Assembly: GCA_038740615.1 (NCBI GenBank) | Contig: JAVYLQ010000001.1 | Span: 1 to 64,000 of the forward strand | Direction of reading: 5' to 3' | Source: Candidatus Anstonellales archaeon | GTDB taxonomy: Archaea; Micrarchaeota; Micrarchaeia; Anstonellales; J096 | Length of the DNA: 64,000 nt | In this document: in pieces, positions 46,852 to 52,180 of the stretch | Position numbering within the stretch: position 1 is the first letter of the stretch | Layout: each line of letters begins with the position of its first letter | Program-made: the position numbers and the translations under genes | Notes under the pieces: model-generated | Seen by the model: the letters and a program-made list of their open reading frames with translations, nothing else | What the model was told of the DNA's origin: nothing | Databases searched by the model: none

Positions 46852-47739
46852 CTATTTACTCACAGAATCAGAACTATCATAATCGATATATGGTACGAAA
46901 CACTTTATAGCCTGTTTGAATTCTGTGAGTTCCAATCCATAGGATAGAGCTTTAGTGATGTTAAAAGATCTGGAGAGAGTTATTGGATATATCTCCTCTT
47001 TTCTAGAATAGATATATTCCATTGTATAGCCGAGAATAGTAGAAATTATTGGAACTTTTAATCTAGCTCTAAATAATTCTCTAACGGGCCTAGGGTTCAT
47101 TTGAATGCCTAACACCTCTGATACATCTCTAATAATCTGCATAAACTCTATTCCTGGAGAGGTTAGATTGATCACATCAGAATTATTAAATTCTAGATTT
47201 TTAGAGATAAATTTGGCTACGTCTCTTGCATAGATAAATGGAACAGTATTCTTCCCATCTCCAAAATAGAAAGGTCCGTGCCTCTTCCAAGCTCTTAACA
47301 TATCCAAATACTGCTCATAATATTCCCCGAAAACAGTCCCAATTCTTAATATCTTTGCTCTTTTAGATGATTGTATCACTATTCTCTCAGCAGCTAATTT
47401 TGAAGCCCCGTAAGCGTCATTAGGCCGTGTTGGACTAGATTCATCAAATCCACTAAAATTTCTACGTCCGTATACTGCAATTGATGATAGGAATATTATT
47501 CTATCGCTGTTCAATCCTTGTAATATCTCATCTACAATCTTATAATTTACTCTCCAAATATCATCAGCACTGCCTTTAGTTATACCGATCGCAATTATCA
47601 CAACATCATATCCCTTTACCTTATTTGCTATGCTTTCCCTATCATAATTTATATTCTGTCTGGAGTAGGGATCATATGGGATGAATTCAGATATATATCT
47701 TGCAATTCTAGAGTTGGCACCTATAAGAGCTATTTTCAT
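46852..47739 (-). CDS. NAD-dependent epimerase/dehydratase (extended SDR)
   Basis: N-terminal Rossmann segment with degenerate GANSRIA; SSIAVYG; YGASK. Confidence 0.85.
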   Translation of the reverse strand: MKIALIGANSRIARYISEFIPYDPYSRQNINYDRESIANKVKGYDVVIIAIGITKGSADDIWRVNYKIVDEILQGLNSDRIIFLSSIAVYGRRNFSGFDESSPTRPNDAYGASKLAAERIVIQSSKRAKILRIGTVFGEYYEQYLDMLRAWKRHGPFYFGDGKNTVPFIYARDVAKFISKNLEFNNSDVINLTSPGIEFMQIIRDVSEVLGIQMNPRPVRELFRARLKVPIISTILGYTMEYIYSRKEEIYPITLSRSFNITKALSYGLELTEFKQAIKCFVPYIDYDSSDSVSK

Positions 47740-47793
47740 ACATCTCTTCTATTAGAATCTGTAGAATATTTAAAATTATCCATGTAAATAGTT

Positions 47794-49401
47794 ATGATGA
47801 AATCGAAATTAAAGTATGGCAAGAGCAGCAATCTGAGTAGAGCAATAAGAATTGATTATGATAGTACCCAAGACATCTGTGATTATTCTGATAGCCAAGG
47901 GATCAGAGAGAGATTAATTAGAAAATTTCTGGAGAGATTCAAGAAAGACTTGGAGAGAGGTAAATACGAACGGGTCATATCGAATTGGCCTCTACCAATA
48001 CAAATAGAACCGAACAAACATAACGCAAGAGAGATTTTAGATTTAATATACAGCGATATAACTCGAATTTATGAGTCTTTATCTTCATTAGAGCAAATAC
48101 ATACGATCAGGAAGATTAAGACAAGTTCAGATAGATTGAGTAAGCTAATAGAGATCCTTAGAGCTACTAAATACGATAAACTAACTGAGTATTCTGTACT
48201 ATTGATAGAAGGTTTGAAAGTAGTCAGTAAAGAACGTTTTGGGGAGCAGATGGCAAATATTCTTAATCATATTATATATGATAGTGATAGTAGTTGGGAT
48301 AGAGCGGATTATAAGTTGAGTAATGATAAATTAAGATATGTTAAAGCTGCCCTCTCAATAGCTGGGATTGTGTTTGCTCTAGAGTATTCTAAGAGAAAAA
48401 ATGAGTCTAGGAAAAAGTGGGATAATGTTGCTAGATTCTTCATTGAATTCTATAAGGAGCTCGAGTACGATGGTGTTGTGGATGTTATCGAAGAAGTATA
48501 CTTTATGGATAGAGAGCAATTTAACAGAATTTATGAAGAATTAAAATGTAAAAAGTTCCAAGAGATACGAGATGTGTTAAAAAATTTAGAGAATGTAGAG
48601 GGAGTAGAATCTAGATTGAAAAGTAAATACAGTACCTATATGAAGCTTAAGAATAAGTATAAATTAGATCCGGATAATCAGAAACTGGATCTAAATACTG
48701 TAAAGGAGAAATTAAATGATGTGAATGGATTCAGAATCATACTGAAAGATCCTAATAATTTCACAAAAACTCTAGCTCTTCTACTACATAAGATATCGGA
48801 GGTAATAAGAGATATTAAGATGATAGAGTTGGAGTTCTATAATTGTGAAGACCGATTGGAGCAGATGAAACGGGATTTAAAAAAACCCCCCAATAGTCTT
48901 ATAGAGGAGCTAAACGAACATATAAAAAATAATAATACTAAGATGGAATCCAGGAAGAAAGATAATAACTATAGGGCAATTCATGTACTGTTTGCTACCC
49001 CAGAAAATGTTAAAATAGAAGTACATGTGATTGAAAGCAGAGAAATCTATGAGAGAAACAAATACTCTCAATCATCCGCACATATTATTTACAAGAACAG
49101 AGATTTGCAAGATGTGGTTGACAAACTTAGATCCACTTTACTACAGCTATTATCTCTAAATCAAATTATGCTAAAAGATGGAAATGAGGAAATAGAGTTG
49201 TCACCGGCTGATATCAAATCTTATGGTGATAAGCAGATCATATGGCAGAGTGGTGCAAATGATCGTGTGATATTGCTATTTGGAGATAGTCTAAGTTATA
49301 TGAAAGTCCTAAGTCCTAAAGTAGAAACGCCAATATCCATAAATGTTAAAATAGACAAATATACTAATAAGATGGTGGCTAAAGTTGAATCAGATAATTG
49401 A
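47794..49401 (+). CDS. RelA/SpoT-like protein: degenerate HD region plus (p)ppGpp synthetase-like domain
   Basis: SRLKSKYSTYMKL, LNDVNGFRII, KDNNYRAIH, IEVHV, AHIIYK match the RSH synthetase motifs in order. Confidence 0.75.
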   Translation: MMKSKLKYGKSSNLSRAIRIDYDSTQDICDYSDSQGIRERLIRKFLERFKKDLERGKYERVISNWPLPIQIEPNKHNAREILDLIYSDITRIYESLSSLEQIHTIRKIKTSSDRLSKLIEILRATKYDKLTEYSVLLIEGLKVVSKERFGEQMANILNHIIYDSDSSWDRADYKLSNDKLRYVKAALSIAGIVFALEYSKRKNESRKKWDNVARFFIEFYKELEYDGVVDVIEEVYFMDREQFNRIYEELKCKKFQEIRDVLKNLENVEGVESRLKSKYSTYMKLKNKYKLDPDNQKLDLNTVKEKLNDVNGFRIILKDPNNFTKTLALLLHKISEVIRDIKMIELEFYNCEDRLEQMKRDLKKPPNSLIEELNEHIKNNNTKMESRKKDNNYRAIHVLFATPENVKIEVHVIESREIYERNKYSQSSAHIIYKNRDLQDVVDKLRSTLLQLLSLNQIMLKDGNEEIELSPADIKSYGDKQIIWQSGANDRVILLFGDSLSYMKVLSPKVETPISINVKIDKYTNKMVAKVESDN

Positions 49402-50077
49402 TTATATTGCTAGTGTTGGTATAGATGGAGCCAGATGGATAGAGGAGAATGTTGATAAACAATACCAGTCATTACTAGAACTATCAGAATATCTACCCAC
49501 TGATAGATTCCTTACGTTGATTGTAAAAAATGCACTGATTGCATTCCAACTCACTTCTAAAGGTGAACACTATTGGCAGGAGTTTAGCGAATACTTCATA
49601 AGTAATCCTGATAAAGATATAGTAGATTTTTTGAGAACGAGTAAGGGAAATAGATTGTATCACAATATGAAAATTAATAGATTGAAAAGAATAGAGAATT
49701 CTGTTTTTGGAATAGAGTACTACTGGGATATGAATAAACTAAGAAGAGAACTGGAATTAAAGTTGAATAGTACTGGTAAGACAATATTCTTTGCTGTGAA
49801 AATGTACGGATATGGAGCTAGAATAGTTTCAAAACAATTCATACCGTATCCAACATCCATCCCCATACCTGTTGATTCTAGAGTAAGGAAAATAACAGAA
49901 AGGATTGGAGGATCCGACCCAGAGAAGTTCTGGCAAGAGGTATCTCACCAAACAGGAGTACCACCACTACACATAGATTCTATAATCTGGCCTTTACTAT
50001 CCGGAGATAGGGAAATACTAGATAGGTATAGATCTAGATTTAGTATACCTAAGTTTTTATCCTCTTTAATAGATTGA
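49385..50077 (+). CDS. N-glycosylase/DNA lyase (AGOG, archaeal 8-oxoG glycosylase)
   Basis: D.QY, NALIAFQL..KGE.YW, KTIFFAVKMYGY, IPIPVDSRV, PPLHIDSIIW; TTG start after GGTGG. Confidence 0.88.
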   Translation: MNQIIDYIASVGIDGARWIEENVDKQYQSLLELSEYLPTDRFLTLIVKNALIAFQLTSKGEHYWQEFSEYFISNPDKDIVDFLRTSKGNRLYHNMKINRLKRIENSVFGIEYYWDMNKLRRELELKLNSTGKTIFFAVKMYGYGARIVSKQFIPYPTSIPIPVDSRVRKITERIGGSDPEKFWQEVSHQTGVPPLHIDSIIWPLLSGDREILDRYRSRFSIPKFLSSLID

Positions 50078-51236
50078 TAATACTCTTATCATTCTTTATT
50101 TTATTAAATGCTCTCTTTGCTTCAAAGAACTTGTTCAACATATTTCTTACCTCTAATTCGTTAAGACCCGCTCCCTTAGCGATTCTTCTAATTCTGGAAT
50201 CAGATGATTTTATTATTTCAGGTTTTCTACGCTCTTCTGGAGTCATAGAATCTATCATAGCCCTAAACTTTCTCATCATATCCTGCATTTTCATTGATTG
50301 TTCTACATTTACATTTATTCCGAATCCGCTCAATATATCCTCTATATTCCTACCTCGCATTTGCTCTAGCTGCTTCAAATAAGTCTCGAAATTAAATTCC
50401 AAAGATTCGTCCAAATCATCTAAAACCTCTTTCAACTGGCTAGGATTTATAAATCCCAACATCTTTGTTAGTAGATCATCCGGATTGTAAGGGCTTATGT
50501 TATCTATTTTCTCCCCGTGTCCTACAAATACTATTGGAATTTTCAGATTTCTAACAGCAATAAATGCTCCCCCTGCCTTACCTGATCCATCTATCTTAGT
50601 GATTATAGCCCCGGTTATTCCCAATTCCTTGAAGCTCTCTGCCAATTTCTCCGCATATTTACCTGTATCCGCACCTATAACCAACCACACATCATCAGGT
50701 GAAACCCTTTCCCTTATAGATTTTAGCTTATCTATATATCTCTGTTCTTCACCAGATTTGCCAGGAGTATCGATGATCCACATTTCGTTTGGTTTTGGAT
50801 TGTAGACTTCAGAATAATCTCTAACTAGCTGTTTCAATTGTTCTTTACCAGCTGGTCGCTCATCATCAAAAGATACAACTCTGGTAGGAAGCCCTCTAGT
50901 AGAGAAATATTTCCAGAGCTTTGCGGCAGTAGTAGTCTTCCCCGATCCATACAATCCAACCAACATTATTTTCCTAGGTCTAAAATCTGGTTGATAAGGT
51001 TCACCTAATACTTCCTTTAGAATATTATAAAGAGAGCGGATTATATATTGCTTGCTTGGAAACTTATCCTTAGAGATATCTGATTTAAGTCTGTTTGTAA
51101 TTTCAAAGACCACTTTTGGAGGGATATCTGCTAGCAACATTGATTTCTGTATCTCTAGAATAAATTCTCCTATTGCCGTTTGATCTAAAATGGGCTTTCC
51201 TAGGAATTTCTCTATAATGGGTCTTAGTGATATCAT
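50049..51236 (-). CDS. srp54: signal recognition particle protein SRP54, divergent
   Basis: GLYGSGKTTTAAKL, TKIDGSGKAGGA, M domain IDSMTPEER..P...SRIRRIAKGAG. Confidence 0.92.
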   Translation of the reverse strand: MISLRPIIEKFLGKPILDQTAIGEFILEIQKSMLLADIPPKVVFEITNRLKSDISKDKFPSKQYIIRSLYNILKEVLGEPYQPDFRPRKIMLVGLYGSGKTTTAAKLWKYFSTRGLPTRVVSFDDERPAGKEQLKQLVRDYSEVYNPKPNEMWIIDTPGKSGEEQRYIDKLKSIRERVSPDDVWLVIGADTGKYAEKLAESFKELGITGAIITKIDGSGKAGGAFIAVRNLKIPIVFVGHGEKIDNISPYNPDDLLTKMLGFINPSQLKEVLDDLDESLEFNFETYLKQLEQMRGRNIEDILSGFGINVNVEQSMKMQDMMRKFRAMIDSMTPEERRKPEIIKSSDSRIRRIAKGAGLNELEVRNMLNKFFEAKRAFNKIKNDKSIINLLKRIKT

Positions 51237-52180
51237 CCTTCGTCTCCTAACAATTGAGGGGATTTAACACCTACAGAAAACATTATTACCTGAATCGTGT
51301 CTTTTAGGTCCTCTTTAATCCTAACCCCCATCTTAACCTCGCCCATCTCCACAATTCCTCGAGTCAGACTATTTGCCACCTCACTAACCTCACCTAGTTG
51401 TACATCTGGGGAGATAGTTAGGTGTATTATAGCACCTTTAGCACCTTCATAGTCTATATTTAGTAATGGATGAGATAATGTTGATTCTATTGCCTTTTTA
51501 ACTCTATCAGTACCAGAACCCTGACCAATAGATATCATTATTAATCCTCCTTTAGAGAGTAAGGCTCGCATATCTGCTAAATCTACATTTATTAGAGATA
51601 CCTCAGATAATACACTTACCAATCCATCTACAGCATTTATCACAACGTTATCTACCATTTCAAAAGCCTTACTTATAGATAGATTAGGGAAGTATTCCAT
51701 AAGTTTGTTATTGTCTATCAATACTAATGTATTAACGTATTGCATAAATCTCTGTATCCCTTCTGATGCTGTTTTCAGCCTAGCTCTTTCAAATCTGAAT
51801 GGATAGGTTGCTACACCTATTATAACTGCATATGGCATATTATCCCTTAATAGTTTTGCTAATGCTGGCGCTCCTCCTGTACCAGTACCACCCCCCATAC
51901 CAGCTACTATGAATATGAAATCTGGATCTTGGATTAGATCTAAGATCTTATCCTTAGCCAGTAATATAGCTCTCTCGCCTATCTCAGGCCTACCTCCTGA
52001 ACCATGGCCTAACATAGGAGTCTGAAGCAGTATTTTATGATCAGCTAGTGCACCAACCAAGCTGTTATATGTAGATCCAAGAACGATAGTTTTGACAACA
52101 TTAGAATTAATCCCTCTGAGTTTCATTCTTGAGATTATATTTAAACCCGCATCACCAATTCCAATAACATATATTCTCAT
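51233..52180 (-). CDS. ftsZ: cell division protein FtsZ
   Basis: GMGGGTGTGGAP tubulin signature, PFRFE, IDNNKL, INVDLAD. Confidence 0.93.
   Translation of the reverse strand: MRIYVIGIGDAGLNIISRMKLRGINSNVVKTIVLGSTYNSLVGALADHKILLQTPMLGHGSGGRPEIGERAILLAKDKILDLIQDPDFIFIVAGMGGGTGTGGAPALAKLLRDNMPYAVIIGVATYPFRFERARLKTASEGIQRFMQYVNTLVLIDNNKLMEYFPNLSISKAFEMVDNVVINAVDGLVSVLSEVSLINVDLADMRALLSKGGLIMISIGQGSGTDRVKKAIESTLSHPLLNIDYEGAKGAIIHLTISPDVQLGEVSEVANSLTRGIVEMGEVKMGVRIKEDLKDTIQVIMFSVGVKSPQLLGDEG

Follow-up and report, generated by a model that had tools for sequence, protein, structure and literature searches.

The open reading frame at 47794..49401 on the forward strand of a 64,000-nucleotide stretch of Candidatus Anstonellales archaeon DNA (positions 1 to 64,000 of contig JAVYLQ010000001.1, assembly GCA_038740615.1; hereafter the window) raises the question of whether a reduced archaeon carries a RelA/SpoT homologue (RSH), and if it does, whether the protein is still an enzyme, what it would make, and what has become of its hydrolase domain. 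A single open reading frame is listed at exactly these coordinates, beginning with ATG and encoding 535 residues, and we lean towards the view, from sequence comparisons, that its product is a highly diverged monofunctional RSH pyrophosphokinase of a hot-spring micrarchaeon (Anstonellales, DPANN). The gene and its parts are as follows.

47794..49401, forward strand: RSH-like gene, 535 residues plus stop codon, with a RelA_SpoT match and intact in independent metagenome contigs
47881..48591, forward strand: N-terminal all-helical domain (N-domain), a candidate degenerate HD pseudo-hydrolase (residues 30-266, ~235 residues)
48595..49101, forward strand: RelA/SpoT synthetase domain, nucleotidyltransferase-like (residues 268-436)
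48841..48951, forward strand: clade-specific insertion of two helices (residues ~350-386), between the '..Y' and 'K.N.Y..H' motifs
49102..49398, forward strand: C-terminal beta-rich domain (C-domain; residues 437-535)

An earlier reading of the window from its letters (the sequence-only reading) had proposed an RSH-type synthetase homologue in an archaeon, and by profile and motif comparison the protein is indeed a real, and very divergent, member of the RSH superfamily. The Pfam profile RelA_SpoT (PF04607) matches residues 273-436 of the translated protein (E 6.4e-6, 26.9 bits), and in a six-frame search of the genome the match scores 30.5 bits, above the 27-bit cutoff. Relatives score 36-71 bits, and three close relatives carry PF04607 in their precomputed Pfam annotation. 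A clade profile (A2) made from this protein and six relatives finds YwaC (E 9.1e-6), YjbM (E 3.5e-4) and further solved RelP and RelQ structures (to 1.7e-3) in the PDB; phmmer and a four-sequence profile found nothing relevant there. PADLOC assigned no family, and PHROGs and NCBIfam returned weak, unrelated matches only. The AlphaFold2 model has a predicted local distance difference test score (pLDDT) of 74 and a predicted template modelling score of 0.77, with pLDDT of 85-92 in the synthetase region, and the sole Foldseek matches to it at E ≤ 0.001 are Rel, SpoT and RelA chains, from E 5.2e-5. The modelled synthetase fold is nucleotidyltransferase-like and closest to Rel/SpoT/RelA structures.

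The synthetase motifs stand in the canonical order that had been described for them, and every string quoted in the sequence-only reading is located in the translation. Within the synthetase domain these are SRLKSKYSTYMK (273-284), DVNGFRI (309-315), KKDNNYRAIH (388-397), IEVHV (408-412) and AHIIYK (429-434), and upstream of it SVLLIEG (134-140), ERFGEQMANIL (147-157), VARFFIEFY (212-220), IEEVYF (232-237) and FNRI (243-246). Seven sequences were aligned, four of them only 25-37% identical to the protein described here, and R274, K276, S280, D309, G312, Y393, A395, H397 and E409 are the same in all seven; H430, Y433 and K434 are also present in this protein, and the motif residues line up with their canonical counterparts in L046, an intact long RSH of the phylum. 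In the clade, E-x-E occupies the stretch of four residues ahead of Y349, which is at most a lead towards the EXDD/RXKD motif. We take the roles of these residues to be those known from the RelSeq, RelP and RelQ literature, with basic residues binding ATP, two carboxylates holding Mg2+, and a Tyr and a His at the acceptor site. Because the motif residues are invariant among relatives that are only 25-37% identical, the RSH-like protein is probably catalytically active. In the reaction that we propose, D309 and E409 would hold Mg2+, a purine nucleotide would stack on Y393 and receive the beta,gamma-pyrophosphate of ATP at its 3'-OH, and this acceptor would most probably be GDP or GTP, yielding (p)ppGpp.

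The N-domain had been read as a dead hydrolase domain, and the alignments bear out the lack of a hydrolase site. In bifunctional Rel/SpoT proteins the HD metal and catalytic residues are H...HD...D, with an HDXXED motif (PMC2666561). Neither the seven-sequence nor the ten-sequence alignment shows a conserved His or Asp in the N-domain, and there is no HD dyad; whatever its origin, the domain therefore lacks an HD-type hydrolase site. The residues that are invariant among the seven sequences are F149, Q152, G191, F194, E197, R201, W209, F219, Y220, E222 and V228, and only F194, R201 and E222 (numbered as in the window protein) are still invariant among the ten.

The origin of the N-domain is a separate matter, and we think it likely, from sequence comparison and structure models taken together, that it descends from an HD domain. 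The resemblance to HD_4 suggested from the letters is not recovered with either the HD_4 or the HD profile, neither of which matches the protein at E ≤ 1. An iterated HD profile reaches 36 of the 59 RSH-like proteins of the phylum and none of the clade (best score 2.0 bits), a clade N-domain profile reaches 12 of the 59 with no bridge to the other RSH-like proteins, and profile-profile alignment of the N-domain with HD in hhalign is never better than E 0.011 (probability 3.8%). The alignment from the global mode of hhalign was meaningless and was set aside. The best N-domain/HD alignments are always colinear, pairing FGEQMA with EFG..VA, FALEYSKRKN with LGDRLHNMRT, and FFIEFYKELEY with ETIEIYVPLAHKLN, at non-significant scores. 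A degenerate HD domain is only suggested by these comparisons: the pairing of FGEQMA is as had been proposed, but the 'IE' of SVLLIEG, which had been taken for the replaced HD dyad, does not lie opposite it.

Folded alone, the N-domain reaches a pLDDT of 83.9 and has no Foldseek match at E ≤ 0.001 (best E 0.42); all of its fold matches lie under the noise level quoted for the tool, with Translin and MA3 above the HD chains. The HD-type chains (by their titles two SpoT, RelH, B. subtilis Rel and T. thermophilus Rel, together with DatZ, an HD phosphohydrolase) cover the whole N-domain with the longest alignments, of 130-158 residues, though with scores in the noise range, and superposing both domains on Rel brings 265 residues into alignment. 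Among the ESM Atlas neighbours of residues 30-266 that have a family assignment, each of the top ten carries HD_4 (best score 0.90). We also note that weak HD_4 matches (24.7-37.5 bits) persist in phylum proteins of matching size and layout, one of which has kept a TGS match too.

An alternative that concerns origin only is that the N-domain is a helical domain of other ancestry that became joined to a small alarmone synthetase (SAS), its position being coincidental. The similarity to HD_4 is not significant by sequence or profile, the stand-alone fold matches rank Translin and MA3 above the HD chains, all at sub-noise scores, and the synthetase-domain tree described below leaves the placement unsettled, all of which such a fusion would accommodate. 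However, three independent weak signals (colinear motif-to-motif alignments, HD chains as the sole whole-domain matches, and language-model neighbours that are all HD_4) favour HD_4 over thousands of other families, and both the extent of the superposition on Rel and the weak HD_4 matches of the same-layout proteins point the same way, so we regard an unrelated fusion as unlikely while giving it some weight. If it does descend from an HD domain, the N-domain would have degenerated and, as in RelA, been retained in a structural or allosteric role alongside the synthetase.

The C-domain is beta-rich in the model, with pLDDT of 50-70. It matches no Pfam family and no ESM Atlas cluster (best score 0.76), its profile reaches just five of 60 phylum proteins, which are the closest clade, and on these comparisons it is private to the clade. 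A recognisable ACT domain had been reported as missing, and neither ACT nor ACT_4 matches the protein in Pfam; the corresponding score for the phylum's canonical long RSH is 42.3 bits, and here only 99 residues follow the synthetase domain. A search for TGS gave no match at E ≤ 1, with the proviso that the C-domain is weakly modelled and a degenerate beta-grasp is conceivable, and a TGS profile made from the phylum's canonical long RSHs finds those proteins and no others (five of 59).

Selection on the gene can be gauged against its two neighbours, which together with a putative promoter element lie as follows.

46852..47739, reverse strand: divergent NAD-dependent epimerase/dehydratase gene (Pfam Epimerase, E 3.1e-18)
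47767..47779, forward strand: AT-rich TATA-like element ~22 nt 5' of the RSH-like ATG, read from the sequence
49385..50077, forward strand: AGOG 8-oxoguanine DNA glycosylase gene with a TTG start (Pfam AGOG, E 1e-55; NCBIfam NF009785, 240.4 bits)

Window positions 46852-50077 were compared with loci L003, L004 and L005/L014, and the protein identities in the three genomes concerned are these.

G290: RSH-like 87%, AGOG 95%, epimerase 96%
G313: RSH-like 28%, AGOG 59%, epimerase 51%
G176: RSH-like 32%, AGOG 56%, epimerase 50%

Against the G290 orthologue, the RSH-like gene has a ratio of nonsynonymous to synonymous substitution rates (dN/dS) of 0.22, compared with 0.11 for AGOG and 0.09 for the epimerase, and by domain its ratio is 0.205 for the N-domain, 0.243 for the synthetase and 0.216 for the C-domain. 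Purifying selection acts on each of the three domains, and constraint within the gene is weakest in the insertion, with a dN/dS of 0.705 in the same comparison. In an alignment read by eye, an insertion of ~20-45 residues is present in all ten rows that share this type of N-domain and in none of the eight rows with an N-domain of the HD-profile type. In the model it forms helices at 352-363 and 368-380 with pLDDT of ~90.

The gene order epimerase, RSH-like, AGOG is kept in G290 and G313, and across two contig fragments in G176, all of the same genus; the epimerase neighbour is found at L003, L004 and L005, and the order was not seen at three more distant loci. The RSH-like gene does overlap the AGOG gene, as had been noticed, by 17 nt if AGOG begins at the TTG at 49385, which is the first start codon of its frame and, on inspection of the translation, the only one before the Pfam match (from residue 6). 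The stress operon that had been suggested from this overlap gains no support: the adjacency to AGOG occurs in the three same-genus relatives examined that have the gene and is not seen at the three more distant loci. The TATA-like element falls within the 54-bp gap that separates the RSH-like gene from the divergent epimerase gene, and in the light of general knowledge of archaeal promoters it suggests a leaderless transcript.

The reading frame recurs intact outside this assembly. Over window positions 47700-50100, metagenome contigs from four of four independent hot-spring runs differ by substitutions only, with zero indels, and one contig covers the entire interval with two differences. Copies of this interval are near-identical or 95-97% identical, in runs labelled hot-springs metagenome; because the four compared runs represent four studies, the lineage appears to recur in hot springs. 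There are no RNA runs among the 19 listed, which come from seven studies. Directly downstream, at 50049-52180 of the window on the reverse strand, lie genes for SRP54 (395 residues) and FtsZ (315 residues). Both look short relative to typical homologues, which fits a streamlined genome.

A number of observations weigh against a conventional (p)ppGpp synthetase, and they must be set beside the conserved motifs. The Pfam score on the translated protein falls 0.1 bit below the gathering cutoff of 27. Asn replaces the canonical Gly before the stacking Y393, so that GY has become NY, and the 45-residue insertion adjoins the presumed acceptor-binding motif K.N.Y..H. The protein evolves about twice as fast as the products of both flanking genes while synteny is kept. 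No HD_4 hydrolase was found in the genome itself, but the assembly (541,905 bases in 31 contigs) is only 83% complete. Finally, 'RT' of the QIRT motif is IE, and His replaces Gln at position 411, after E409. The sequence-only reading had proposed that the change from EVQIRT to EVHVIE might alter the acceptor or abolish activity, and this now needs qualification: loss of RT is general in the clade, the Gln to His change is limited to the closest relatives (others keep Gln), and the catalytic Glu is retained.

These departures could also point to a re-specified pyrophosphokinase, with a working active site but an acceptor other than GDP or GTP. Its acceptor pocket would be reshaped by the insertion and by the changed G-loop and E.Q.RT motifs, such that the enzyme converts ATP or ADP to (p)ppApp or GMP to pGpp, or modifies the tRNA 3' CCA as do the toxic small alarmone synthetases (toxSAS). 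The clade-specific insertion directly adjoins the K.N.Y..H motif, the GY to NY and QIRT to HVIE changes lie in the motifs concerned, evolution is fast and fastest in the insertion, and a passage of PMC8646023 states that (p)ppGpp is so far undetected in the archaea examined. Nonetheless, the solved structures that it matches best by sequence are those of RelP and RelQ, which are (p)ppGpp synthetases, the stacking Tyr and the acceptor-motif His are invariant, and there is neither a toxin-antitoxin-like partner gene nor a PADLOC match. Acceptor specificity as such lies beyond the reach of the sequence and structure tools used, and we consider re-specification rather improbable. Slightly less probable again is a broader version, a lineage-specific, fast-evolving RSH derivative of hot-spring Micrarchaeota whose remodelled pocket would yield a non-canonical product or act on a macromolecule, for instance tRNA, whose former hydrolase and C-domain would act as sensors, possibly linked to a symbiont-host relationship, and which would take no part in a classical stringent response. 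That the protein is a catalytically dead pseudoenzyme, its RSH scaffold kept for a binding or structural role only, we judge quite unlikely, for although the borderline Pfam score, the non-canonical NY and EVHVIE, the insertion, a dN/dS twice that of the neighbours (0.22 vs 0.11 and 0.09) and the precedent of a domain without a catalytic site in the same protein are in keeping with it, R274, K276, D309, Y393, H397 and E409, whose roles we take from the known synthetases, are invariant while their surroundings have diverged to 25-37% identity, which argues for a retained active site.

A monofunctional (p)ppGpp synthetase would have its product turned over by something other than an HD_4 hydrolase. 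None of the five other genomes of the genus has an HD_4 match. The genome itself has one NUDIX gene (G000:C13:6494-6832, L095; a 156-residue frame, 72.7 bits), and no Ppx-GppA was found in it. Because no HD_4 or Ppx-GppA protein was found, the single NUDIX protein is a candidate alarmone-degrading enzyme.

The family to which the protein belongs is very narrow, though RelA_SpoT in general is not rare in the phylum. Searched exhaustively with HMMER, 1.84 billion representative proteins gave six matches, of which five are real relatives; the sixth (P0007), a 985-residue repeat protein matched in five stretches, was judged spurious. A word-indexed homologue search, with a single sequence and with an alignment alike, found just three close relatives among 7,999 scored candidates, and the nearest named relative is a 92% identical hypothetical protein from a Candidatus Anstonellales archaeon, class Micrarchaeia. 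Among 401 genomes of the phylum, the clade profile matches in 12, HD_4 in 77 and PF04607 in 105 (103 over cutoff). RSH genes had been described as only sporadic in archaea, and with PF04607 in 105 of 401 genomes this does not hold for the present lineage. Nor is it new for DPANN: a passage of Li et al. 2021 (PMC8407392) reports RelA/SpoT in 69.0% of Diapherotrites, 41.7% of Woesearchaeota, 21.3% of Pacearchaeota and 19.0% of Nanoarchaeota, and predicts that the DPANN genes were acquired from Bacteria. That passage relies on automatic annotation and does not list Micrarchaeota. A 2011 survey of RSH proteins counts zero long RSHs in archaea (PMC3153485), and our literature search found no characterised DPANN or micrarchaeal RSH.

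The RelA_SpoT forms of the phylum run from a canonical arrangement of HD, synthetase, TGS and ACT through a graded degenerate series, and the gene described here is the most diverged of them. At the canonical end are long RSHs of ~650 residues (L045-L049, in genomes G093, G051, G304, G274 and G168), present in six of the seven sampled genomes of one family; that at L046:610-2550 on the reverse strand, for example, has HD_4 at 142 bits, RelA_SpoT at 132 bits, TGS, ACT_4 and an intact HD dyad. Because L045-L049 carry all of these, a full bacterial-type Rel/SpoT is present in Micrarchaeia. A synthetase-domain tree of 56 rows and 130 columns, built by a quick method with an arbitrary root and poorly supported deep branches, has the clade falling, with weak support (Shimodaira-Hasegawa-like approximate likelihood ratio test, SH-aLRT, 86), among the phylum's HD-like proteins; omitted from it were L057, which duplicates L006, two near-copies of L045 (L048 and L049), and P0002, whose identity to the window protein is 93%.

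Two further forms were seen along the way. Proteins of 354-385 residues from four families (L054, L056, L060, L061, L066, L068 and L072) make a tight clade (SH-aLRT 100) in which RelA_SpoT lies near the N-terminus, at residues ~70-190, with an extension of ~170 unannotated residues after it. In five genomes of one genus, which belongs to the same taxonomic order, two RelA_SpoT reading frames of ~450-540 residues each lie within ~1.5-2 kb of one another on the same strand (G341:C4:26821-28491, G275:C32:5230-7176, G284:C35:5202-7035, G180:C48:20500-22430 and G377:C2:43641-45554), which suggests tandem paralogues.

A genome of ~0.54 Mb thus retains a 535-residue gene under purifying selection, in a DPANN phylum in which about a quarter of the sampled genomes have RelA_SpoT domains. 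Because the gene is under selection and keeps its catalytic residues, and no HD_4 partner was found, it is a compact and testable candidate for settling whether, and which, alarmones are made by reduced symbiotic archaea. It would also be a natural illustration of the extent to which a pseudo-hydrolase domain may diverge and yet stay beside a synthetase.

Comparison with known systems brings out both what is shared and what is not. E. coli RelA is a monofunctional long RSH in which the pseudo-HD domain is still recognisable as HD_4, and which has ribosome-binding regulatory domains of TGS, helical, zinc-finger and ACT/RRM type. The window protein, in contrast, has no HD_4 match and no recognisable TGS or ACT, has ~100 residues after the synthetase, and has a 45-residue insertion within it. 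The SAS proteins RelP (YwaC) and RelQ (YjbM) of Firmicutes are single-domain proteins of ~200-250 residues, whereas this one has 535 residues, two more conserved domains and the insertion. Similar in form are the HD-like/synthetase proteins of the same phylum (for example L051, L053, L063 and L067; 440-550 residues), which share its length class and its layout of N-domain, RelA_SpoT and short C-terminal part; however, they keep weak HD_4 matches (24.7-37.5 bits) and lack the insertion, and profile iteration from them does not reach its N- and C-domains. Unlike a toxSAS module, which pairs the synthetase with a small antitoxin or a small alarmone hydrolase, the gene has an epimerase gene and AGOG as its neighbours, with no PADLOC family and no HD_4 in the genome. 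The protein is thus outside the definitions of a canonical long RSH, an SAS and a toxSAS module alike. By analogy it would work most like RelA, as a synthetase that keeps a former hydrolase beside it, with its product, its regulation and the HD origin of its N-domain put forward as proposals.
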